From a virus (lineage: Duplodnaviria; Caudoviricetes), in the IMG/VR virus record IMGVR_UViG_3300023178_000006: DNA of 64,000 bases; one strand, written 5' to 3'. Below are positions 4,603-31,425 of the stretch, in pieces. The stretch's first letter is position 1. The number at the start of each line of letters is the position of its first letter. Below the pieces are notes generated by a model. The model did no database searches and was not told the origin of the DNA. It saw nothing but the letters and a program-made list of their open reading frames with translations. Both the position numbers and the translations under genes were made by a program.

Positions 4603-5031
4603 ATGAAAGTATTAGTCTTTGGACTTCCGGGTTCAGGCAAAAGTACGTTATCAGAACCACTCGCTGAGTTGGTTGAAGGTGTCTGGTTAAATGCAGACGC
4701 AGTAAGAGAAGAATATGATGATTGGGACTTCAGTGATGAAGGTCGTATGAGACAAGCAATGAGAATGAAATATCTTTCGGATGGTGTCTCTAAAGCGGGG
4801 AAGATTGCGATTACAGATTTCGTTTGTCCGTTCCAAAAAGCACGTGACGAGTTTAAACCAGATTATACAATTTGGATGAACACAATCAAAGAGGGAAGGT
4901 TTGAAGATACAAATAAAATTTTCGAAAATCCTGAAGAAGCCGATTATATCGTTGATGCATTTAGACCTCAAGAAGAATTGAAGTTAGAACCAATCTTAGA
5001 AAGGGCATTTAGAAAATGGCAAGCTCAGTAA
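4603..5031 (+). CDS. Adenylylsulfate (APS) kinase-like P-loop kinase
   Basis: GLPGSGKST P-loop, LNADAVR (cf. LDGD.IR) and DFVCP (cf. SFISP). Confidence 0.65.
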   Translation: MKVLVFGLPGSGKSTLSEPLAELVEGVWLNADAVREEYDDWDFSDEGRMRQAMRMKYLSDGVSKAGKIAITDFVCPFQKARDEFKPDYTIWMNTIKEGRFEDTNKIFENPEEADYIVDAFRPQEELKLEPILERAFRKWQAQ

Positions 5032-5237
5032 GTGCTAAAAGACATATTGCGAAAACACTCACGTGGAGAGTATTAGCAACCACTGATACTTTTCTTATCG
5101 CATGGTTAATTACAGGTCAATGGGATTGGGCAGCAGGGATTGCATCAATCGAAGTTGCAACCAAAATGATTCTGTATTATTGGCATGAGAGAGTTTGGTA
5201 TAAACATATAAACTATGGAGTAGAAAGGAATGATTAG
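5016..5237 (+). CDS. DUF2061-like small membrane protein
   Basis: RHIAKTLTWR...K..LYYWHERVW pattern. Confidence 0.7.
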   Translation: MASSVSAKRHIAKTLTWRVLATTDTFLIAWLITGQWDWAAGIASIEVATKMILYYWHERVWYKHINYGVERND

Positions 5238-5655
5238 TCCAGAAGAAGCATTCGATTATAAGAAACCAACAGTTCAAATGTTGGGTAGATGGCAGCCTTG
5301 GCACGACGGTCATACACAATTATTCAAAAAAGCCTTGACAATCACGGGACAAGTTGTTATAATGGTACGTGACGTTTTCAATTATGATGGAGATGCGGGT
5401 GCAGGACGCACAGTAACTCAAGATGATAATCCATTTGGAATGGTACAAGTCATACATGATATTGAAAAAGGATTAGCAGAACACGGTTACTTGAATGGTC
5501 GTGAGTATTTAATATTGGAAGTACCTAACATCGTCGATATATCGTATGGACGAGGAGTTGGTTACACATTTACAGAGCATGATTTAGGAGAAGAAGTACA
5601 TAATATTTCTGCGACAAAGATTAGAGCTCAAATGAGAGAAGAAGGTAAATTATGA
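5230..5655 (+). CDS. HxGH-class nucleotidyltransferase (cytidylyltransferase-like fold)
   Basis: MLGRWQPWHDGH and C-terminal ISATKIR. Confidence 0.75.
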   Translation: MISPEEAFDYKKPTVQMLGRWQPWHDGHTQLFKKALTITGQVVIMVRDVFNYDGDAGAGRTVTQDDNPFGMVQVIHDIEKGLAEHGYLNGREYLILEVPNIVDISYGRGVGYTFTEHDLGEEVHNISATKIRAQMREEGKL

Positions 5656-9034: not shown

Positions 9035-9063
9035 TTGACATTTCACGGTACCTGTGTTATAAT
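9035..9063 (+). promoter_or_regulatory. Sigma70-type early promoter for gp43
   Basis: TTGACA 9035-9040, N17, TATAAT 9058-9063. Confidence 0.85.
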
Positions 9064-9086: not shown

Positions 9087-11633
9087 ATGACAATGACTTC
9101 ATTTTACACTTCCGTAGAACGCTACGGTAAGAATATTTTATGGCGAGGATATGAGAACGGTAAACGTTTCTCGTATCGTGTTCCATTTAAACCCACACTA
9201 TATCTTCATACACCAAAGAAAGGTGGTGACTTCAAGTCGTTGATTGGTGGTAAAAGTCTACATCCTCAAAAGTTTGGTGAAATGCGTGAAGCTAAAAACT
9301 TTATTGAAGAGTATAAAGGTGTCGCTGGTTTCGAAGTATTTGGTTCAACAAACTTCGTTACACAATTCATTCAAGAACATTACCCAGAAGAAGTAAGATT
9401 TAATATTGCTGATGTGAACATCGTATCTTTCGATATTGAGGTTGACATTCGTGATGGATTCGCAGATATTGAACAAGCAAATAATGAAATTACTTCTATC
9501 GCATATAAATCATCAAAGTCTAAAAAGTACTTCCTACTTGGTCGTAAAGATTATGATAAAACAAAAACGATAACTGGTATTGACCCAGATAATATCGTAT
9601 TCGCAAAATTCGATACTGAAGCTCAATTGCTCCAAGGATTTATTAAACTATGGACTGCTGACTATCCAGATATTGTAACCGGTTGGAACGTAGAATACTT
9701 TGATATACAATACATCGTAACACGTATTATAAGACTACTTGGTGAAGAATCCGCAAAGAAACTTTCTCCTTGGAAATCGATTGACCAAAAACGTAGAGAG
9801 GTATTCGGTAAAGTTCAAGCAACATACAAAATTTCTGGTATGTCTGTTATTGACTATATGGATGCGTTTAAAAAGTTTGGTTATAAGTATGGTCCACAAG
9901 AATCATATAAACTTGACCACATCGCTCATGTTATTCTTGGTGAAAAGAAACTTGATTATTCTGAATACGGTTCATTGACTGCTTTATATGACGAAAACCC
10001 ACAACTCTATCTCGACTATAACTTAAAAGATACACACCTCATTCAAAGAATGGAAGAAGAAACATCTCTTCTCGCGTTGGTAATGACTGTTGCTTATGGT
10101 GGTGGTGTAAACTATAATGATGCATTTGGTACTGTGGGTATTTGGGAATCTACAATTTATCGTAGACTCATTGCTGACAAAGTTGTTCCTCCAGTTAAAG
10201 ATTCGCCTGGTCAACGTATGGGTGAACTCGTTGGTGGTTACGTAAAAGACCCAAAACCAGGAATGTATCCTTGGGTTGTATCATTTGACTTAAACTCTCT
10301 GTATCCTCATTTAATGTTGCAATACAATATGTCACCTGAAACATATCTTCCTAATGAACGTGAAGTTGTAACACAAGACATGGTACTCAATAGTGAGTTT
10401 AAAAATACGAATACAAATATGTCGGTTGCTGCAAATGGTGTTTGTTTTAGAAACGATGAAGTTGGTATTATTCCAAGTATCATTGACGAATACTATAATA
10501 ATCGTTCTGTGATTAAGAAACAAATGATTGCAGTTGAACAACAATTCGAAGTTGAAACTGACCCTGTTGAAAAGAAAAGACTGAAACGAGAAATGAATCA
10601 ACTTCATAATTCTCAAATGTCAATCAAAATTGCTATGAACTCTCTTTATGGTGCGACAGCAAATATCTACTTCTTATACTATATTAACGAAATGGCTGAA
10701 GCAATCACTACATCTGGTCAGTTAAGTATTCGATATGCTCAAAAATCTGTAAATGATTATCTCAACAAGATACTCAACACGAAAGATAAAGATTATATCG
10801 TATACATTGATACTGATTCAATTTACGTAAACTTTGGTCCATTCATCAAAGAAGTATTCGGTACAGTAGACATTGACCGTAAGCAAGGTGAAGAATTCTT
10901 AGATAAAGTATGTTCTACTAAAATCGAACAAATCATCGAACAAGGATATGAAAAACTTGCAAATGACATGGGTGCATATCGAAACGCGATGGTTATGAAA
11001 CGTGAAAAGATTACTGACCGTTCAATCTTTATCGCAAAGAAAAGATATATCCTTAATGCTTTGAATAGTGAAGGTGTTCACTATGAAGAACCAAAAGTTT
11101 CTGTTACTGGTTTAGAATCAGTTCGCTCATCGACACCTGAAATATGTCGTGAAAAGATGAAACAAATCTTTAAGGTTATCTTGTCTGGTGATGAAACAGA
11201 AACACAACAATTTATTGCGAAGTTCCGTGATGAATTTCGTAGCTTACCTCCCGAAGATATTGCTAAAACTTCGGGCACAGACAATATCAATAAATACATG
11301 AGTAAGGAAACTCTATATAGAAAAGGATGTCCAATGCATGTTCGTGGTTGTATTCTCTACAATCACTTCCTTACACAGAAAAAACTCGATAAGAAATACG
11401 AAAAGGTTCAATCAGGTGACAAGATAAAATTCATTTATCTTAAAGTGCCTAATCCTATTCGTGAAAATATGATATCGTTCCCCGGTGTACTTCCTAAAGA
11501 ATTAGGACTCGACAAGTATATTGATTATGATACTCAATTCGATAAAGTGTTCTTAGGACCAGTCGAAAACATTATTGAACCTCTGGGTTGGAAATCCGAA
11601 AAAGTAAATACAATTGAGGACTTTTTTACATGA
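9087..11633 (+). CDS. gp43: Family B DNA polymerase
   Basis: Exonuclease DIEV and YNLKD; polymerase SFDLNSLYP, K..MNSLYG, YIDTDS and KKRY. Confidence 0.96.
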   Translation: MTMTSFYTSVERYGKNILWRGYENGKRFSYRVPFKPTLYLHTPKKGGDFKSLIGGKSLHPQKFGEMREAKNFIEEYKGVAGFEVFGSTNFVTQFIQEHYPEEVRFNIADVNIVSFDIEVDIRDGFADIEQANNEITSIAYKSSKSKKYFLLGRKDYDKTKTITGIDPDNIVFAKFDTEAQLLQGFIKLWTADYPDIVTGWNVEYFDIQYIVTRIIRLLGEESAKKLSPWKSIDQKRREVFGKVQATYKISGMSVIDYMDAFKKFGYKYGPQESYKLDHIAHVILGEKKLDYSEYGSLTALYDENPQLYLDYNLKDTHLIQRMEEETSLLALVMTVAYGGGVNYNDAFGTVGIWESTIYRRLIADKVVPPVKDSPGQRMGELVGGYVKDPKPGMYPWVVSFDLNSLYPHLMLQYNMSPETYLPNEREVVTQDMVLNSEFKNTNTNMSVAANGVCFRNDEVGIIPSIIDEYYNNRSVIKKQMIAVEQQFEVETDPVEKKRLKREMNQLHNSQMSIKIAMNSLYGATANIYFLYYINEMAEAITTSGQLSIRYAQKSVNDYLNKILNTKDKDYIVYIDTDSIYVNFGPFIKEVFGTVDIDRKQGEEFLDKVCSTKIEQIIEQGYEKLANDMGAYRNAMVMKREKITDRSIFIAKKRYILNALNSEGVHYEEPKVSVTGLESVRSSTPEICREKMKQIFKVILSGDETETQQFIAKFRDEFRSLPPEDIAKTSGTDNINKYMSKETLYRKGCPMHVRGCILYNHFLTQKKLDKKYEKVQSGDKIKFIYLKVPNPIRENMISFPGVLPKELGLDKYIDYDTQFDKVFLGPVENIIEPLGWKSEKVNTIEDFFT

Positions 11634-12382
11634 AAATATGTGTAGTCACAAACTTTAGAACTGGAAGTACCAGTTTTACGTTATTAAAAGCAGACGAATA
11701 TAATGCACCTTATAAAGGTGAAATGTTTACGTTCTATCCAAGACCTTATGGACTAGGTGCAGCAAAAGCACAATGGCAAATCGTAAATTACTTTGAAGAT
11801 TGTACAGACGAAGAAAAGACACGCTTACAATCAACAGAATTATTTGTTAATCAACTTGAGCAAGGACACTCATGTTGTTTTAAACTTATGCCTGGTCAAT
11901 TAGTCGATGAAGAACTCAGAGATAGAATGTTTAAATCAATGGATAAGATTTATTATCTTTATCGTGAAGATTTTGCAGCTCAAGCTAAGAGTTGGATTGC
12001 GGTAAGACAACAAGACCATTTGGATTTTGCGAGAACAGGATTCGTAAGAGATGAATGGTTAGAAAGACAATATTTAGAAAAAGCAGCAGAAAGACAAAAG
12101 GTACTTCACCTAGGAACACTAGGTAAAGGTGAAACTGTTCGACATCATATCGATTTTGGTCAAAGACCAGCAGCAGGACCAAATGAAACTGAAAAGCGCT
12201 TAATTAATCAATTAATAGAAGGATACGAATGGATGGGTGAAATGTATAAAAAGTATCCTGGTGAACTTGTAAGAATGGAAGATTATTTTACTGACGAAAA
12301 GTATAATCCTTATAATAGGGAAATCACTTGGGCAGTAGAACCAGAAATTCCAGATTTTATCCCAAGTAAATGTTTTGAATAA
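11630..12382 (+). CDS. Sulfotransferase-like protein (Stf0/P-loop type)
   Basis: N-terminal NFRTGSTS (5'-PSB loop-like) and YLYREDFAAQAKSW (3'-PB-like, cf. Stf0 R...L.QAVS); ATGA overlap with gp43. Confidence 0.55.
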   Translation: MKICVVTNFRTGSTSFTLLKADEYNAPYKGEMFTFYPRPYGLGAAKAQWQIVNYFEDCTDEEKTRLQSTELFVNQLEQGHSCCFKLMPGQLVDEELRDRMFKSMDKIYYLYREDFAAQAKSWIAVRQQDHLDFARTGFVRDEWLERQYLEKAAERQKVLHLGTLGKGETVRHHIDFGQRPAAGPNETEKRLINQLIEGYEWMGEMYKKYPGELVRMEDYFTDEKYNPYNREITWAVEPEIPDFIPSKCFE

Positions 12383-12387
12383 AACAG

Positions 12388-12416
12388 TTGACAAATGCGC
12401 TATTATGTGTTATAAT
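12388..12416 (+). promoter_or_regulatory. Sigma70-type early promoter
   Basis: TTGACA 12388-12393, N17, TATAAT 12411-12416. Confidence 0.85.
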
Positions 12417-12439: not shown

Positions 12440-12727
12440 ATGAGTGATATCAATATCGTAAGATTATCAACAGGTGAAGAAGTAGTAGCTAAAGTTTCAT
12501 ATGATAAAGGATTCTATACTTTAACAGATGCAATTCTATTAGTTCCTGCAGGTGAAGGAAAAATTGGAATGGTTCCATTTGTACCTTACGCTAAAAGAGG
12601 TCCAGTTGTAATCGGAGAAGCTCACGTAATGTTTATGGTTGAACCTTCAGATGAACTTAAGAAACAAGTTGTCGAAGTCACCAGTGGAATCGCATTACCA
12701 GGCAATTCAGGATTAAAATTAGTATAG
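12440..12727 (+). CDS. Hypothetical protein of a type common in T4-like phages
   Basis: IVRLSTGEEVVAK N-terminus; AAGGAG RBS. Confidence 0.6.
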   Translation: MSDINIVRLSTGEEVVAKVSYDKGFYTLTDAILLVPAGEGKIGMVPFVPYAKRGPVVIGEAHVMFMVEPSDELKKQVVEVTSGIALPGNSGLKLV

Positions 12728-12735
12728 GAGAAACT

Positions 12736-12951
12736 ATGGTAGTAATATATGGCAAAGAACAGTGTGCCTATTGTACGATGGCAAAAAATCTTTGTGAACA
12801 GAAAGGGTTGGAGTACCAATACAAAATGTTAAATGAAGATTATACTCCACCAGAATTTTTTGACTTATTCCCAGGTGCTAGAACATTCCCTCAAATTGTT
12901 GTTGATGGAAAGCACGTTGGTGGATTCAACGAACTAAAGGAAAGTTTATAA
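12736..12951 (+). CDS. Glutaredoxin (NrdC/NrdH-like)
   Basis: CAYC active site, TFPQI and GGF. Confidence 0.88.
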   Translation: MVVIYGKEQCAYCTMAKNLCEQKGLEYQYKMLNEDYTPPEFFDLFPGARTFPQIVVDGKHVGGFNELKESL

Positions 12952-13259
12952 TGAAATATTTAATTGTAATTGCAGCATTACTTATCTCTAATACAGCTAA
13001 TGCTGAAGATAGATTTGCACCTATTCGTTCAACAATGAATACTTGTGCAGCTTGCCACGGACCTCAGGGTCAAGGTGGAATCGGTCCTAAATTACAAGGA
13101 CAATCTGCTGATGAAATCATTTCAAAATTATTAGCATATAAAAATAAAGAAGTTGTAGGACCACAATCTGCAATGATGTGGCCGACAGCAGGTATGCTAT
13201 CTGAAGGTGATATTGGTATGATTGGTGTTTATATTGCACAAGGATATCCAAATGAGTAG
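12951..13259 (+). CDS. Class I monoheme cytochrome c (c553/c4-like) with signal peptide
   Basis: Hydrophobic leader ending in ANA, CAACH heme motif, P.L.GQ...I...L..YK, and distal AMM methionine. Confidence 0.82.
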   Translation: MKYLIVIAALLISNTANAEDRFAPIRSTMNTCAACHGPQGQGGIGPKLQGQSADEIISKLLAYKNKEVVGPQSAMMWPTAGMLSEGDIGMIGVYIAQGYPNE

Positions 13260-13683
13260 AAACTGGGTAGAAGACATTCACAACATGCAAACGAAATATA
13301 AAACTCGTGAATGGGTTTGGGATAATCGTGATGATGTTGAGAAGCTTAAAAAGTTTTTAGAATTTAGAATTAATTTTCTTGAGGAAGAACTAACTGAAAC
13401 GAAGAAAGCGTTTAAGGAAGGAGACCCTGAAGAAATAGTCGATGGATTAATCGACCTATGTGTTGTTGCCATAGGAACACTTGATGCTTATGGCGTTAAT
13501 CCACATGAAGCATGGGATAGAGTTCTCAATGCTAATATGGCAAAAGAAGTTGGTGTGAAAGAATCTAGACCTAATCCCTTAGGTGTTCCAGATTTAGTAA
13601 AACCTGAAGGTTGGGAAGCTCCTAATCACGAAGGTAACCACGGCCTCTTCTTAAAGAATTTATTTAATGGGAGAATAGAATGA
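13252..13683 (+). CDS. All-alpha NTP pyrophosphohydrolase (MazG/PRA-PH-like)
   Basis: LEEELTE...EEIVDGLIDL and NMAK...KP.GW; start reassigned to ATG 13252. Confidence 0.75.
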   Translation: MSRNWVEDIHNMQTKYKTREWVWDNRDDVEKLKKFLEFRINFLEEELTETKKAFKEGDPEEIVDGLIDLCVVAIGTLDAYGVNPHEAWDRVLNANMAKEVGVKESRPNPLGVPDLVKPEGWEAPNHEGNHGLFLKNLFNGRIE

Positions 13684-15909: not shown

Positions 15910-16163
15910 TGAGTAATGTGATTATACCTTCAAGTGATGAAGATAAGAAAAGAATTAAAGGTGCTATGGAAGAAATGAGTAATTCATTTACTAGAGTAGA
16001 AGCCGAACGTGATTTTCAAAAAGAAGCAATTAATGCCTTAGCTGACGATGTAGATATTCCTAAAAATATTCTACGTAAAATGGCTAGGATTTATCATAAA
16101 CAAAATCTACCAGCAGTTGTAGCTGAACTAGATGATATTGAAACACTATTGGAAACAATTTAA
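15909..16163 (+). CDS. Small dsDNA-binding protein (T4 DsbA/GapR-like)
   Basis: 84 aa, helical, ending ..LRKMARIYHKQN..., similar to remembered DsbA homologues. Confidence 0.5.
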   Translation: MSNVIIPSSDEDKKRIKGAMEEMSNSFTRVEAERDFQKEAINALADDVDIPKNILRKMARIYHKQNLPAVVAELDDIETLLETI

Positions 16164-16834
16164 TGTTAAGAGTTAGAGATATTCGTAATCAAATCGTAAC
16201 TGATTTTCTTCAAGGTGATTGGGTTATTGATAGAACAGGTGCTAAGACTGTTGAAGTCATTGGTGCCACATTTATTGCTGATGAAGATTATGTTATTCGT
16301 AAACCAGCTTATGAATACATCAAACGTGAATTGCGTTGGTATGAAATGCAATCACTGTATGTTGATGACATCCCTGGTGAAACTCCACAAATTTGGAAAG
16401 ACATCTCATCTGAAGAAGGTAAGATTAATTCAAACTATGGTTGGTGTATCTATTCTGATGAGAATGGTAATCAATACCAAAAAGTAAAACAAGAATTAAA
16501 GTCTAATCCAAACTCAAGACGTGCGACAATGATTTATAATCGACCAAGCATGCATACTGATTTTAACAAAAATGGTATGAACGATTTTATGTGTACTTAT
16601 GCTAATACGTTCTATATCAGAAATAATAGATTAGTTTCGCATTATATTATGCGTTCAAACGATGCAGTCTTTGGTTATAATAATGATTATGCTTGGGCAA
16701 AACACGTTCAAGAAAGACTTGCAAATGACTTAGGTGTTGAAGTTGGTGAATTAATTTGGACCGCTTCTAACTTTCACGTATACGAAAGACACTTTAATTT
16801 TATACAGGAATATATTGATGGCAATAAAGGTTGA
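16163..16834 (+). CDS. gp42: dCMP hydroxymethylase-type thymidylate-synthase-family enzyme (T4 gp42-like)
   Basis: Co-linear with T4 gp42 as recalled: D.TG.KT.E.IGA.F.ADE, DIPGETP.IW, INSNYGW, SRR..MIY.RPSM, DFMCT, MRSND.VFG..NDYAW (cytosine-specifying Asp) and HVY.RHF. Confidence 0.88.
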   Translation: MLRVRDIRNQIVTDFLQGDWVIDRTGAKTVEVIGATFIADEDYVIRKPAYEYIKRELRWYEMQSLYVDDIPGETPQIWKDISSEEGKINSNYGWCIYSDENGNQYQKVKQELKSNPNSRRATMIYNRPSMHTDFNKNGMNDFMCTYANTFYIRNNRLVSHYIMRSNDAVFGYNNDYAWAKHVQERLANDLGVEVGELIWTASNFHVYERHFNFIQEYIDGNKG

Positions 16835-17036
16835 AGTTACAGATGAACAATGTGATGAAATTGTGGTTGAAAGTCTTAATAATGCAATTGAACATTTCGA
16901 AGAAGCGTTCGAAGACAGAGCAAATGACGATGGTGGTTTAAACTACGCTCATTTCTCAACTAACATTCAAGAAGATTTAGCTGAAATACAAAAACACATT
17001 GAAGCATTTAAAACAGTGAAAAGTTATTATGTATAA
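16815..17036 (+). CDS. Hypothetical acidic protein
   Basis: 73-aa ORF overlapping both neighbours. Confidence 0.55.
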   Translation: MMAIKVEVTDEQCDEIVVESLNNAIEHFEEAFEDRANDDGGLNYAHFSTNIQEDLAEIQKHIEAFKTVKSYYV

Positions 17037-17490
17037 ATGGGATTCAAGATTCCTTAATATAGCGAGAGAAATCTCAACTTGGAGTAAAGACCCATCTAAA
17101 AAAATTGGTGCAGTATTCGTATCTGATGAACGTAGAATATTAGCAACTGGTTATAATGGGTTTCCTCAAGGTATTGGAGATAGTGAAGATAGGTATTTAG
17201 ATAGAGATATCAAATATGCATATGTAGTACATGCTGAGAAGAACGCAATATATAATGCTACATATCACGGAATCACTTTAAAAGATTCAACGCTATATGT
17301 ATGGGGATTGCCCGTTTGTAGTGAATGCGCTAAAGGTGTTATTCAAGTAGGAACAAAACGAGTTGTAATGCCCTCAATGGATTCTATGGGATTTGTCGAT
17401 GAGACAAGAGAAAAGTGGATTCATTCTTGGGAATTAAGTCATTCGTTATTTAGAGAAGCATTAATTGATGTTGATTTTGTTGACATTTAG
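17029..17490 (+). CDS. cd: dCMP deaminase
   Basis: S.DP..K.GA, TGYNG, HAEKNAI and PVCSEC. Confidence 0.9.
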   Translation: MYKWDSRFLNIAREISTWSKDPSKKIGAVFVSDERRILATGYNGFPQGIGDSEDRYLDRDIKYAYVVHAEKNAIYNATYHGITLKDSTLYVWGLPVCSECAKGVIQVGTKRVVMPSMDSMGFVDETREKWIHSWELSHSLFREALIDVDFVDI

Positions 17491-17508
17491 ATAAAAGTAT
17501 GGTATAAT
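17480..17508 (+). promoter_or_regulatory. Sigma70-type early promoter for the glycosyltransferase/methyltransferase genes
   Basis: TTGACA 17480-17485, N17, TATAAT 17503-17508. Confidence 0.82.
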
Positions 17509-17510
17509 AT

Positions 17511-18743
17511 ATGGGTATGAAAAAATCAGTTTTAGTTATTGATAATCTCACAGAAACTTTCGATGGTTCTGTAGTACGTTCTGGACTTCAAAAGAGTTCT
17601 AAACTTGATGCCAGAGCCTTCAGCAAATTAGGTTATCAAACAACTTATATGTATTGTGGGAGAGTAGTAGACCCAGGATATGAATACATGCACTATGGTG
17701 TAAACTCCCTTGGTGCAAAAGACCAAGCAATGAAAGAAGGTAAGAATCCTTCTCGTGTTAGTAGACACTATATTAAAAGATATTTAGAAAGTGTTAAGGA
17801 TATAATTGAAGACCACGATTATATCATCGCTCATTGTCATAGTGTTTCTATGATTACTACACTCAATCAACTCGTCAAGAATAAAAGAATTATGTTTATT
17901 ATTCATGATGTTATTGATTTAATGTGGTGTTATGGATTCAGTGATGTTATTCGTAGAATGAGAAAGACAGATAGGAATATGTGTTATATTGCTACGAACT
18001 CAAACTACTCAATTCAAAAGATGAATGACATTCATGAGCGTGCCATTAAAGCTGGTTATGAAGATATTCCATTAAGAGGTGATGATGCTTTTGATGGATT
18101 CATCGAACACTTTGTTTGGACTGACGAAAAAGTTACATCTGAAGATATTGAACAAGTTGAGAATAAGTCAGCAATCATAGGAAGATACTCTACAGATAAG
18201 TTCCACCACAAAGTATACGGATATAATAATCCACAAAACACGATTGTTCATTATGGTGTACGTGACCCAAGACGAGATAAGACTGGAAGATACTTTGAAA
18301 ATCTTCAAAAGAAAGCAAATGCTTATATGGAAAATCTTCCAGATGAAGAATTATTCGAAGCAATTAAAACATCTCAAAGTATTATACTACCTTGTTTTCA
18401 TGAGGGATTTGGTTATACCGCATTTGAAGCTGGAATCTATGGAGTAGTTCCAGTTATTTTAGTTAAACAATTAGACCACACACAACAAATGATACACGCA
18501 ACCTCAGAATATCTTTTACGTGCTAATGTTAAACACTATACCGCAGACTTCAACGATGCAGATGACATATATAAAGCTATAGACGAAAGTATTAAGGTGA
18601 CTCCTGAAGATAGGAGAAACATAAGCCGTAATCTTTTAAAATATTTTACTGTGACTAAATACGTCGAAGAAAGAATTTCACTATTAGATGGAATGGAAGA
18701 ACGTATTTCTAGTGAGGTTGACCTTGAGGATTTTTTTGTATGA
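17511..18743 (+). CDS. GT-B (GT4-like) glycosyltransferase, candidate DNA hmC glycosyltransferase
   Basis: PCFHEGFGYTAFEAG contains the E-x7-E motif of retaining GT-B enzymes; lies next to gp42. Confidence 0.72.
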   Translation: MGMKKSVLVIDNLTETFDGSVVRSGLQKSSKLDARAFSKLGYQTTYMYCGRVVDPGYEYMHYGVNSLGAKDQAMKEGKNPSRVSRHYIKRYLESVKDIIEDHDYIIAHCHSVSMITTLNQLVKNKRIMFIIHDVIDLMWCYGFSDVIRRMRKTDRNMCYIATNSNYSIQKMNDIHERAIKAGYEDIPLRGDDAFDGFIEHFVWTDEKVTSEDIEQVENKSAIIGRYSTDKFHHKVYGYNNPQNTIVHYGVRDPRRDKTGRYFENLQKKANAYMENLPDEELFEAIKTSQSIILPCFHEGFGYTAFEAGIYGVVPVILVKQLDHTQQMIHATSEYLLRANVKHYTADFNDADDIYKAIDESIKVTPEDRRNISRNLLKYFTVTKYVEERISLLDGMEERISSEVDLEDFFV

Positions 18744-19933
18744 TTAAACACGCATCTATCGTACCACTTATCGGTGGTGAAACTATTGGCTCAGAATTAG
18801 CGTTTGGTGAAAAGCCAACGTATATGATGTCATACGAGGCATTCGAAGCAAATGATGCTCATGCCCGTAATTACTATAGTGGTACTCCGTACTATGTTCT
18901 AGATAAGGGTGAGAATCCCTCTGAGAGTGTAGATGTAGTATCTTCTGTATGTCCATGTGCTGGACTATCTCAGCTATCCCACGGATTTGGTGATGATAAT
19001 CCAAATAACCAATGGATGGAAATTACCGCAAGACATGTACTTGAAAATGTAAAACCAAAAGTATTTTGGGGAGAAAATGCTCCAGGGTTTGCAGGTAAAA
19101 TTGGTGATACAGTAAGAAACAAACTAAAACAGATTGGAAAAGAAAACGGATATACTATGAGTGTATATCGAACAAGGTCACTATTACATGGTGGTCCACA
19201 AATTCGAGAGCGTTCATTCTATTTCTTTTGGAAAGACGAACGTACTCCTCTTTTAAGTTGGTACAATAAAGAACATACTAAAATCGAAGATGTTATTCGA
19301 AGTGTAGCAGGCTCAAATAGTTTTACTGACCCAATCAATCCAAAAACTCCAAGTAAAGATGACCTTTATTATAAGTTCGTATTAGACCATATACATGGTG
19401 GAATTACTCATAAAGAATTCTTTGAAATTGCTGAACCACAAAGAGTAAGAGCACAAGACATGTTTTCATATATAGAACGTAGCGGTTATGATTACAAGCA
19501 AGTCGGCGAATGGATGGAACAAAATGGATACGAAAAAGAAGTCGAGAAGTGTAATTACAAGTATGAGAAACTCAAAGCAGGCGGAAATATTATGCGACGT
19601 GGGACGATTATTCCTAAGGATTATATTGGTGCCTTTGTTGGGCACTATCCTACTTGTCTTACTCACCCTGATGATGATAGGTATATTAATTATCGCGAAG
19701 CTATGGCGATTATGGGATTACCTAACGATTTTGAATTACTCAACCCCAAAAAATCGGCGAACCACATCTGTCAAAACGTACCCGTACAAACAGCCCGAGA
19801 CATGGCTACGGAAGTAAAGAAATACTTAGAGGGTAAATTACAAATGGTTGATACTGATTACGTAGTTCAGTATAATCATCAACAGAAAAATAACTACGTA
19901 GAAAAATGCGATACACTTGAGGCTTTTATATGA
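18740..19933 (+). CDS. DNA cytosine-C5 methyltransferase-like protein with atypical motif I
   Basis: CPCAGLS (IV), GENAPG (VI), PQIRER (VIII), REAMAIMGLP (IX) and QNVP (X); motif I reads IVPLIGG. Confidence 0.7.
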   Translation: MIKHASIVPLIGGETIGSELAFGEKPTYMMSYEAFEANDAHARNYYSGTPYYVLDKGENPSESVDVVSSVCPCAGLSQLSHGFGDDNPNNQWMEITARHVLENVKPKVFWGENAPGFAGKIGDTVRNKLKQIGKENGYTMSVYRTRSLLHGGPQIRERSFYFFWKDERTPLLSWYNKEHTKIEDVIRSVAGSNSFTDPINPKTPSKDDLYYKFVLDHIHGGITHKEFFEIAEPQRVRAQDMFSYIERSGYDYKQVGEWMEQNGYEKEVEKCNYKYEKLKAGGNIMRRGTIIPKDYIGAFVGHYPTCLTHPDDDRYINYREAMAIMGLPNDFELLNPKKSANHICQNVPVQTARDMATEVKKYLEGKLQMVDTDYVVQYNHQQKNNYVEKCDTLEAFI

Positions 19934-25577: not shown

Positions 25578-26024
25578 ATGACTGGATTAAATATAAACCA
25601 CTTAACCCCTTTTGCTGTCGGATTCGATAGAGTGTTTGACAGATTAGTTGAATTCCCACAAACTCACGCAGCAACAGGATTCCCACCTTATAATATCAGA
25701 AGAAATAAAGACGGTGATAAGTTCTCTATTGAACTTGCATTGGCTGGTCTCGATATTAATGATGTGGATATTGAAGTTAAAGAAGATGTACTTACAGTAA
25801 AATCTACTTGGGACGAAAAACCAGAAGATAATACTTTAGTAATACACAAAGGAATTTCTCAAAAGAAATTTACTCGTAGCTTTACATTAGCTGACGACTT
25901 AAAAGTAGTTGGTGCTAACTTCAAAAATGGTTTGTTGGTCATTGGACTCGAAAGGATTATTCCTGAAGATAAAAGACCACAAAAAATCAAAATTGACAAC
26001 AAGAAAGAATTCTTGGTAGGTTAA
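25578..26024 (+). CDS. hsp20: Small heat-shock protein (Hsp20/IbpA-like)
   Basis: FPPYNI, IELALAG, HKGIS...FTRSFTL and NGLL.I.LER.IPE. Confidence 0.93.
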   Translation: MTGLNINHLTPFAVGFDRVFDRLVEFPQTHAATGFPPYNIRRNKDGDKFSIELALAGLDINDVDIEVKEDVLTVKSTWDEKPEDNTLVIHKGISQKKFTRSFTLADDLKVVGANFKNGLLVIGLERIIPEDKRPQKIKIDNKKEFLVG

Positions 26025-26029
26025 TTTTT

Positions 26030-26059
26030 AATCCGGGAGGGCGCAATGCTCTCCCGATT
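26030..26059 (+). terminator. Intrinsic terminator after hsp20
   Basis: CGGGAG...CTCCCG stem followed by ATTTT. Confidence 0.6.
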
Positions 26060-26091
26060 TTATAACATGTTATTGAAAGGAAATTTAAATT

Positions 26092-26625
26092 ATGACTATT
26101 GAAGGAAATAAGGTACCTAACGTTACCTTTAAAGTTAGGGAACTCAATAAGGAAACTGCAGAATACGAATGGACTCACCCAAATACCGATTGGTACTTTG
26201 CTGGTAAGCGAGTAATTGTATTCTCACTACCTGGTGCATTCACACCAACTTGCTCAACTTTCCAAGTGCCTGGATTTGAAGCTCGTTATGATGATTTCGT
26301 AAAAGAAGGAATTGATGATATATATTGTATGTCTTGTAATGATTCTTTTGTTATGAATGCTTGGGCAAAAGACCAAGGAGTGAAAAAAGTAAAATTCATT
26401 CCAGATGGTTCATGTGAATTTACCGCAGGTATGGATATGTTAGTTGCGAAAGACAATGTAGGATTCGGTAAAAGGTCTTGGAGATATGCTATGATTGTAA
26501 ATGATGGTGTAGTTGAAAAGGTTTTTGAAGAGCCTGGCAAATCTGATGATTGTGCAGATGACCCTTATGGAGAAACTTCGCCTGGAAATATTCTTGCATT
26601 TTTACAAGGTACTCTAGAAAATTAA
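26092..26625 (+). CDS. Peroxiredoxin (Prx5-like)
   Basis: LPGAFTPTCS peroxidatic motif, S.ND.FVM.AW and RSWRYAM. Confidence 0.9.
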   Translation: MTIEGNKVPNVTFKVRELNKETAEYEWTHPNTDWYFAGKRVIVFSLPGAFTPTCSTFQVPGFEARYDDFVKEGIDDIYCMSCNDSFVMNAWAKDQGVKKVKFIPDGSCEFTAGMDMLVAKDNVGFGKRSWRYAMIVNDGVVEKVFEEPGKSDDCADDPYGETSPGNILAFLQGTLEN

Positions 26626-30909: not shown

Positions 30910-31368
30910 TTATCTGACTCCTAATTCTTTTTCGGTCATGATTACAAATTCCCACCCTCGGTCAGCACAATATTGTCTTGCTGCTTTCCATTTAGCACTA
31001 TTGATACCATAATTCTTAACTTCATTAAGATATCTTCTCGATACTCTTCCAGATGGTGTGTTATTTTTCTTAGAAGGGTCTGGAGGTAACGTTTGCTTAT
31101 ATGGTTTAATTTCTATCATAATAGTCTGTATTTTACCTTCTGGACTCTTCTTATGCACTATTACATCAGGAAAGTATCTGTGTACTCTACTATCTATAGG
31201 ACTCCTATAAGGAACTATCACTTCTTCGCTTTGCCACCATATAACATCAGGATGTTCATCAACAAATCTGAAGAATTTAAATTCCCAAAGTGACCTATAA
31301 ATTATCTTCGTCGGGTCTCCTTTGTATTTAGCTGGATTCTTTGGACGAAAACGACCCTTGTATGCCAT
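30910..31368 (-). CDS. gp4: Head completion nuclease
   Basis: MAYKGRFRPKNP.KYKGDPT.IIYRSLWE, HRYFPD, EIKP and KW.AA; start reassigned to 31368. Confidence 0.9.
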   Translation of the reverse strand: MAYKGRFRPKNPAKYKGDPTKIIYRSLWEFKFFRFVDEHPDVIWWQSEEVIVPYRSPIDSRVHRYFPDVIVHKKSPEGKIQTIMIEIKPYKQTLPPDPSKKNNTPSGRVSRRYLNEVKNYGINSAKWKAARQYCADRGWEFVIMTEKELGVR

Positions 31369-31389
31369 AATATTCTCTTCACTACTCCA

Positions 31390-31425
31390 TATAAATAATT
31401 GAAAGATATCCACAGTTATTTATTA
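31390..31425. promoter_or_regulatory. Opposed late promoters between gp4 and gp48
   Basis: TATAAATA on + at 31390-31397; TAATAAATA variant on - at 31425-31417. Confidence 0.55.

Follow-up and report, generated by a model that had tools for sequence, protein, structure and literature searches.

The closest described counterpart of the gene studied here is Stf0, the trehalose 2-sulfotransferase of Mycobacterium (Pfam family PF09037; PDB structure 1tex). Our subject, P0001, is a sulfotransferase-like gene carried by an uncultured, T4-like salt-marsh phage; it lies in a stretch of DNA of 64,000 nucleotides, the whole of which we call the window (IMG/VR record IMGVR_UViG_3300023178_000006). P0001 is like Stf0 in size (about 240 to 270 amino acids [aa]) and in consisting of a single P-loop-derived alpha/beta domain. 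Its family has in common with Stf0 both a loop of the R-S/T-G-S-T type for the 5′-phosphosulfate of the donor, 3′-phosphoadenosine-5′-phosphosulfate (PAPS), and a 3′-phosphate segment of the YLxRxDxxxQAxS type. It differs in that P0001 falls below the Pfam model, in that the structural alignment of the two proteins holds 15% identity, and in that no trehalose or sulfolipid context was seen. In sulfotransferases, the 5′-phosphosulfate loop, (K/R)-x-G-(S/T)-(S/T), replaces the Walker A sequence GK(S/T).

In the NodPQ-NodH and RaxPQ-RaxST systems, as with the PAPS synthases (PAPSS1/2 and Sat-CysC), a sulfotransferase is accompanied by dedicated genes for activated sulfate. The window is alike in holding a candidate module of this kind, whose adenosine-5′-phosphosulfate (APS)-kinase-like protein, P0100, aligns with the APS-kinase domains of human PAPSS1/2 and of the bifunctional SAT/APS kinase 2gks. 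Unlike in those systems, the first enzyme of the phage module is a 141-aa HxGH protein, P0101, which resembles nicotinamide mononucleotide adenylyltransferase (NMNAT) and not Sat or CysDN; a DUF2061 gene is interposed, and the sulfotransferase gene lies about 6 kb away. The window also resembles the 5-hydroxymethylcytosine (hmC) system of T-even phages (gp42 with alpha- and beta-glucosyltransferases) in its gp42 ortholog, its variable glycosyltransferase cassette, and the placement of an early gene among replication genes; here the difference is that the link with the sulfotransferase is positional only and is seen in a minority of genomes. We know of no described hmC pathway that includes a sulfotransferase. 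The 5-HMUDK of thymidine-hypermodifying phages, an ATP-using kinase of P-loop fold with a Walker A lysine, places an anionic leaving group on 5-hydroxymethylpyrimidine in DNA. It would be a functional analog of P0001 if the acceptor of the latter were hmC, P0001 differing by its sulfotransferase loop. Phage sulfotransferases as such have already been annotated, for example in Synechococcus phage S-SCSM1. The present case differs by a phage-only family invisible to domain libraries, a noncanonical and probably miniature PAPS synthase, and predicted early expression among replication genes.

P0001 resembles sulfotransferases of the Stf0 type

A preliminary description of the window had reported RTGST and R.D..AQA.SW motifs in P0001 and an ATGA overlap with the preceding DNA polymerase gene (polB), and had called the gene sulfotransferase-like, with Stf0-type enzymes as the model. 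Both motifs and the overlap are present (Table 1), and the motif residues are invariant or nearly so in the family. Homologs of P0001 formed 21 clusters at 38 to 98% identity; an exhaustive homolog search returned 50 family representatives and a profile search 58, which puts the family at 58 clusters or more at the 90% identity level. Every member is an unnamed metagenomic protein, and the family does not extend beyond marine and estuarine phages. Atlas clusters resembling P0001 are 92 to 100% viral, and one that is structurally similar to it counts 1,864 members. Across the 21 close relatives, N8, R10, S13, Y108 to R112, S121, and other residues are invariant; among 43 relatives, which reach down to 25% identity, N8 and R10 remain invariant, and at least 90% retain S13, K85, Y111, R112, and S121. 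The conserved blocks read TN(F/Y)R(T/S/A)(G/A)S at the N terminus, FK.MP, DK.(Y).YLYRRDF.AQ..S, and PGE...ED...PYN. No match was obtained by tblastn with P0001 and with a short form of the family (P0057) against 50,697 phage records, and a BFVD search gave weak matches only. By these searches, P0001 founds a phage-only family of predicted sulfotransferases that domain libraries do not detect.

An AlphaFold2 model of P0001 based on a 21-sequence alignment (predicted local distance difference test [pLDDT], 87.6; predicted template modeling score [pTM], 0.87) was aligned without a prefilter to 48,161 PDB representatives. The best match was mycobacterial Stf0 (1tex_A; Z = 8.7, root mean square deviation of 4.0, 162 residues), the second was the sulfotransferase domain of olefin synthase (OLS; 4gox, Z = 7.8), and many further sulfotransferases followed at Z scores of 6.3 to 7.1, mixed with kinases. 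Taken alone, the modeled fold places P0001 in the P-loop kinase/sulfotransferase superfamily, with a slight lean to Stf0.

The class assignment was decided, beyond this ambiguous fold, by matches of relatives to PF09037, by language-model neighbors, and by the R-x-G-S-T loop. PF09037 was matched by 9 of 43 distant relatives, in every case on the segment DKIxYLYRRDFxAQxxS (profile positions ~94 to 163); the best score was 22.1 bits against a cutoff of 22, and one relative reached the gathering score. All named language-model neighbors of P0001 belong to PF09037, PF13469, or PF00685, with no kinases among them, and its structural neighbors in the Atlas include a viral cluster annotated as Stf0. 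The loop itself reads T-N-F-R10-T-G12-S13-T14, the sulfotransferase-type pattern. In all close relatives, S13 occupies the position of the Walker A lysine, and GK(S/T) occurs in none of 43 members. The 3′-phosphate motif, in which an Arg closes a strand and a Ser about eight residues further on opens a helix, is likewise present: in the model, R112/R113 come just after strand 106-111 and S121 lies within helix 115-127, and this segment is the region that matches PF09037. On these grounds P0001 is likely to be a PAPS-dependent sulfotransferase, distantly Stf0-like, although membership in PF09037 could not be demonstrated for it.

Several results weigh against this assignment. Searches of P0001 against Pfam (no match even at an E value of 10), PHROGs, and NCBIfam returned nothing but one chance transposase match, and phmmer and hmmsearch runs with P0001, P0057, A1, and A2 against PDB sequences gave chance matches only and did not recover Stf0. 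In the structural alignment, shikimate kinase reached a Z score of 7.5, so that the margin of Stf0 over P-loop kinases is small, and the search tool itself warns that best Z scores of 7 to 8 are common for unrelated models. Foldseek gave weak matches of mixed kind, the top one an APS kinase and the next 1tex (E = 8e-4). The want of a direct profile match and the near parity of kinases and sulfotransferases in both fold searches would be expected if P0001 were no sulfotransferase but a degenerate protein of P-loop kinase fold that uses another nucleotide, or a noncatalytic nucleotide-binding protein. We consider this improbable. The parts best conserved in the family are the R/K-x-G-S/T-S/T loop and the R...S 3′-phosphate motif, GxxxxGK[ST] is found in 0 of 43 members, and the Pfam and language-model leads are all to sulfotransferases and never to kinases. 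Having an R-x-G-S-T P-loop and no Walker A lysine, P0001 is therefore not regarded as a kinase. The preliminary assignment to the Stf0 type is thus upheld by fold, PF09037-matching relatives, language-model neighbors, and loop pattern, and its stated alternative, that the protein would model as a kinase, was not borne out, the Walker A lysine being replaced by serine.

Table 1. Features of the window and of related loci, with positions and the basis of each entry
Feature	Position	Strand	Basis or remark
Sulfotransferase-like gene P0001	11630..12382	+	Intact open reading frame (ORF), 250 aa, both motifs present
Family B DNA polymerase (gp43-like, polB)	9087..11633	+	Pfam; 45% identity to cyanomyophage gp43
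ATGA start/stop overlap of P0001 and polB	11630..11633	+	Read directly from the sequence
Predicted 5′-phosphosulfate-binding loop NFRTGSTS	P0001 residues 8-15		RTGST = residues 10-14
Predicted 3′-phosphate motif YYLYREDFAAQAKSW	P0001 residues 108-122		R-E-D-F-A-A-Q-A-K-S-W = residues 112-122
Perfect sigma-70-type promoter (12/12), TG-extended, before polB	9035..9063	+	Consensus match only
Perfect sigma-70-type promoter (12/12), directly after the P0001 stop	12388..12416	+	Opens the next unit (p95, glutaredoxin)
Cut-down APS-kinase-like P-loop kinase P0100, 142 aa	4603..5031	+	Pfam APS_kinase, E = 1.3e-9
Small DUF2061 membrane protein, 73 aa, overlapping both neighbors	5016..5237	+	Pfam PF09834, E = 1.7e-22
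Minimal HxGH nucleotidyltransferase P0101, 141 aa	5230..5655	+	GRWQPWHDGH and ISATKIR; candidate sulfate adenylyltransferase
T4 gene-42-type dCMP hydroxymethylase	16163..16834	+	Pfam; identity to T-even gene 42 (see text)
Variable sugar cassette: dCMP deaminase, 410-aa glycosyltransferase, 397-aa C5-DNA-methylase-like gene	17029..19933	+	Pfam, synteny maps
Short-form family members (~205-240 aa) of a different large phage lineage	L011:6104-10223; L084:5826-10895		Peptidase_S8/S74, 2-oxoglutarate (2OG)-Fe(II) oxygenase, and PAAR neighbors

Expression signals and position of the gene

The ATG of P0001 (11630-11632) overlaps the TGA of polB (11631-11633), and a Shine-Dalgarno sequence, GAGGA, stands at 11617-11621, 8 nt 5′ of the start. 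The identical 4-nt overlap of polB and the sulfotransferase gene occurs in two relatives (L001 and L008). To judge by the promoter matches, polB and P0001 probably form a two-gene early transcription unit that starts at the promoter before polB; no T4-type late promoter motif (TATAAATA) was found within 12 kb. Metatranscriptome contigs from two salt-marsh studies cover positions 11633-11783 and 11818-12061 at a depth of 2 to 3. This low-depth cover is compatible with transcription of the gene, DNA carry-over being a possible source.

To place the gene in related phages, 66 IMG/VR contigs found with a family-alignment probe were mapped against the genes of the window and of L083. The most frequent position was between RNase H (rnh)/DUF6433 and p195/PhoH (35 of 66 contigs), followed by that of the window, directly after polB (18 contigs). 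In eight contigs the gene follows dCMP deaminase immediately and lies within the variable cassette, whose last member is the C5-methylase-like gene, and in five it stands between p95 and glutaredoxin. At each of the four positions the neighbors are early genes for replication and nucleotide metabolism, and one genome, G004, ties the rnh/phoH arrangement to the same phage group (polB 77% identical). Because the gene follows polB in only 18 of the 66 contigs, its coupling to polB is a lineage-specific feature and does not count as evidence for a functional tie to the polymerase. The translational coupling proposed in the preliminary description therefore stands as regards the overlap, which is real, but not as a conserved arrangement. 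A replisome-associated enzyme, as the coupling might imply, was rejected as a candidate on the same ground.

The two enzymes of a candidate PAPS module are shared with SAR11 and SAR86

The region at 4603-5655, previously described as a PAPS module, holds three overlapping genes. P0100 scored 38.7 bits against Pfam PF01583 (cutoff, 21.1), the match covering only positions 5 to 93 of the 152 in the profile; against TIGR00455 it reached an E value of 2.2e-9 and 37 bits, far under the cutoff of 138.7. Its top 14 PDB sequence matches are all APS kinases or the kinase domains of PAPS synthases. The alignment to solved APS kinases runs past the P-loop and includes DxxR, FSxExR, and FVxPxxxAR; the first Asp of LDGD is replaced by Asn. 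P0100 and P0101 correspond to the two halves of phrog_10255, of which P0101 covers the second. The intervening DUF2061 gene is also present in relatives; searching for fusions of DUF2061 with longer proteins was uninformative, and in the literature on DUF2061 nothing relevant was found. A perfect TG-extended sigma-70 promoter (12/12) lies at 5335-5363, inside the P0101 gene, and points into a peptide deformylase gene.

The kinase and the nucleotidyltransferase are one protein in L071, in L137, in Xylella phage Salvo, and in Stenotrophomonas phage DLP_6. A species genome scan located a fused protein of ~260 aa, sharing 50 to 63% identity with the phage form, in dozens of genomes of Pelagibacteraceae and SAR86, a distribution that hints at a SAR11- or SAR86-like host of the phage. 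In five SAR11/SAR86 genomes tested, the fused protein was the sole APS_kinase-family match. Neither a Sat-type ATP sulfurylase nor a convincing CysD was found in these five genomes, in which PAPS_reduct-family matches were weak and partial only; Sulfotransfer_3 genes were present in four of them. At 80 SAR11/SAR86 loci, the A2 hidden Markov model detected no member of the P0001 family up to 8 kb from the fused gene. P0101 is read as an ATP-sulfurylase-like enzyme because it is fused to the kinase and because the SAR11/SAR86 genomes offer no other candidate. From these sequence relationships, P0100 and P0101 probably make PAPS, with P0101 as the sulfate adenylyltransferase. As the only APS-kinase-like gene in SAR11 and SAR86 genomes that hold no Sat or convincing CysD, the fused gene bears on the PAPS supply of these abundant bacteria, and its product is perhaps the more testable biochemical question.

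The association of the module with the sulfotransferase gene is closest in three relatives (L069 to L071), where the order is polB, p92, sulfotransferase, glutaredoxin, fused kinase::nucleotidyltransferase, and MazG, with intergenic gaps of 3 to 31 nt and one overlap. The fusion is one gene from the sulfotransferase in all three. Among long records, G025, G003, and G004 hold both the sulfotransferase and the kinase gene; G032 (170 kb, 77% complete) is missing the sulfotransferase, the kinase, and gene 42 alike. Partial IMG/VR records with only the kinase or only the sulfotransferase are mostly 5 to 25% complete. Absences from these were not used, because the records are incomplete and the sulfotransferase gene can lie 28 kb away, as it does in G004.

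Other findings count against a donor-supplying role of the module. P0101 found weak matches only, to archaeal NMNAT, pantetheine-phosphate adenylyltransferase (PPAT), and cytidylyltransferase; it matched neither the Sat (PF01747) nor the CysD family and is not recognizable as an ATP sulfurylase. Since P0101 resembles NMNAT and not ATP sulfurylase, PAPS synthesis by the module is therefore something that we infer. Of the module as first described, the APS-kinase-like gene was confirmed, whereas the second enzyme turned out to be NMNAT-like. G005 (68 kb) carries the sulfotransferase gene without the kinase gene, and the cultured fused-kinase phages Salvo, Sano, and DLP_6 are without any member of the P0001 family.

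In L137, the DUF2061 gene (5738) still stands between a gp55-like gene and gp47, and the fused gene has been relocated to 12478-13260, directly after polB and before a 408-aa ORF. In Xylella phage Salvo (L006; NC_042345.1, 10970-15913), the fused gene is gp32, annotated "kinase." It lies 3.5 kb downstream of a gene annotated as cysteine dioxygenase, a sulfur-related neighbor, and of a MazG-like gene.

Proposed mechanism

The gene, its conservation and motifs, the fold resemblance, and the gene neighborhoods were observed; what we infer beyond them is that the enzyme uses PAPS, that the module activates sulfate, that expression is early, and which class of acceptor is served. We favor, with some reserve, the view that P0001 is an active PAPS-dependent O-sulfotransferase and a very distant relative of Stf0, transcribed early, translated in coupling with polB, supplied with donor by the phage module, and acting on a sugar hydroxyl. 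Transcription would start early, at the sigma-70-type promoter 5′ of polB, and translation would be coupled to the polB stop. P0101 would adenylylate sulfate and P0100 would then phosphorylate the 3′-OH, yielding PAPS; in SAR11 and SAR86 bacteria, these two enzymes form a single protein. In P0001, the NFRTGST loop is predicted to hold the 5′-phosphosulfate of PAPS, and R112/R113 with S121 the 3′-phosphate, while one of two conserved residues, the acidic E31 or the basic K85, may assist sulfo transfer to the acceptor hydroxyl. The acceptor would most likely be a sugar hydroxyl, as for Stf0; the sugar could belong to hmC DNA, to a nucleotide-sugar, or to a non-DNA glycan.

The family is widespread. 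Its gene has early replication genes for neighbors and is not part of glycan or structural islands. Taken with the module, the sulfotransferase would imply that these phages devote genes to making and using activated sulfate during DNA replication.

Candidate acceptors

The genes for hmC synthesis cited in the preliminary description are borne out by the dCMP hydroxymethylase, which has 47 to 50% identity to T-even gene 42, versus ~26% to other thymidylate-synthase-type genes. A dUTPase/dCTPase-like gene is also in the window. Of two glycosyltransferases claimed at the same time, one is clear (17511-18743) and the second was not identified in the window.

The contents of the sugar cassette vary among relatives. 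In L030, the sulfotransferase gene is directly 5′ of the 410-aa glycosyltransferase gene. In L005 (3370-8367), the order is dCMP deaminase, sulfotransferase, a 68-aa ORF, an APH/choline-kinase-like gene (343 aa), a cytidylyltransferase (144 aa), a T4-beta-glucosyltransferase-like gene (419 aa), and a methylase-like gene; the cytidylyltransferase is a precomputed Pfam match, while the APH-like and beta-glucosyltransferase-like names are language-model leads only. The arrangement recalls a LicA/LicC-type activation pair that supplies a DNA glycosyltransferase. Two other relatives (L001:8767-12428 and L008:11991-14865) have quite different sugar genes at the cassette position. One relative's set consists of TAGT (PF20691), an NDP-sugar epimerase, and a UDP-glucose dehydrogenase, and another's of an epimerase, a 363-aa ORF, and a UDP-galactopyranose mutase. 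In the L001 lineage, neither gene 42 nor a methylase-like gene was found in the cassette region.

These genes bear on whether P0001 sulfates the phage's own modified DNA, the acceptor being either a sugar carried by 5-hydroxymethylcytosine or the hydroxymethyl group. A sulfate on the hydroxymethyl group could also serve as a leaving group, much like the phosphate that P-loop DNA kinases add to 5-hydroxymethyldeoxyuridine in thymidine hypermodification. A DNA acceptor would fit a phage that has a gene-42-type hydroxymethylase, a dCMP deaminase, a glycosyltransferase, and a dUTPase/dCTPase-like gene. It would also fit the eight contigs, L030 and L005 among them, that hold the sulfotransferase inside the sugar cassette, the early replication and nucleotide-metabolism setting of all four gene positions, and G032, the sole long record without gene 42, which has neither sulfotransferase nor kinase. 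Yet the cassette position accounts for only 8 of 66 contigs, against 35 of 66 between rnh and phoH, and the gene is retained whether the cassette holds the 410-aa glycosyltransferase, the TAGT-epimerase-UDP-glucose dehydrogenase set, or the epimerase and galactopyranose mutase; it therefore tracks no single sugar. P0001 is acidic (isoelectric point [pI], 5.3; net charge, −8; family median pI, 6.4), which is unexpected for an enzyme acting on duplex DNA, short-form relatives stand in unrelated contexts, and a full-text literature search joining sulfotransferase, bacteriophage, and hypermodification found no paper. Sulfation of the phage's own modified DNA is, on balance, possible but doubtful. 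We likewise hold it unlikely that the phage sulfates its hypermodified DNA, at the glycosyl-hmC sugar or at hmC, with PAPS from a miniature PAPS synthase that it has in common with SAR11 and SAR86. If DNA were the acceptor, this would be the first sulfated modification of a nucleic-acid base. Phage DNA modifications would gain a new chemical class, which would matter for the evasion of restriction and for detection by sequencing; a sulfate that is displaced would provide a sulfate-activated route to further cytosine hypermodification. An acceptor other than DNA would still be an early-infection target.

A protein acceptor, such as hydroxylated residues of a tail-fiber or collagen-like virion protein, is suggested by the setting of the short forms. 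The genes of P0057 and P0049 immediately follow a Peptidase_S8/S74 tail-spike-like gene; a 2OG-Fe(II) oxygenase gene is one to a few genes away, and a PAAR gene is nearby. Where bacterial and phage operons bring 2OG-Fe(II) dioxygenases together with sulfotransferases and PAPS synthetases, hydroxylation and then sulfation of tail-collar or collagen-like proteins has been predicted (PMC2938197). The window and all 66 close relatives, in contrast, place the gene in early replication regions and not in late structural modules, the unit of the window gene is preceded by sigma-70-type promoters, no 2OG oxygenase was seen among the window ORFs scanned, and the closest fold is that of a carbohydrate sulfotransferase. 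A protein target for P0001 is accordingly very improbable, and we retain a sugar hydroxyl as the most likely acceptor.

Further genes in the window

Genes for a class I cytochrome c, an Hsp20 protein, and a peroxiredoxin-like Redoxin protein occur at 12951-13259 and 25578-26625, all among early genes. On the opposite strand, at 30910-31413, a gene with a TnsA-like endonuclease N-terminal domain (Pfam E = 3.6e-21) lies amid baseplate and tail-tube genes.

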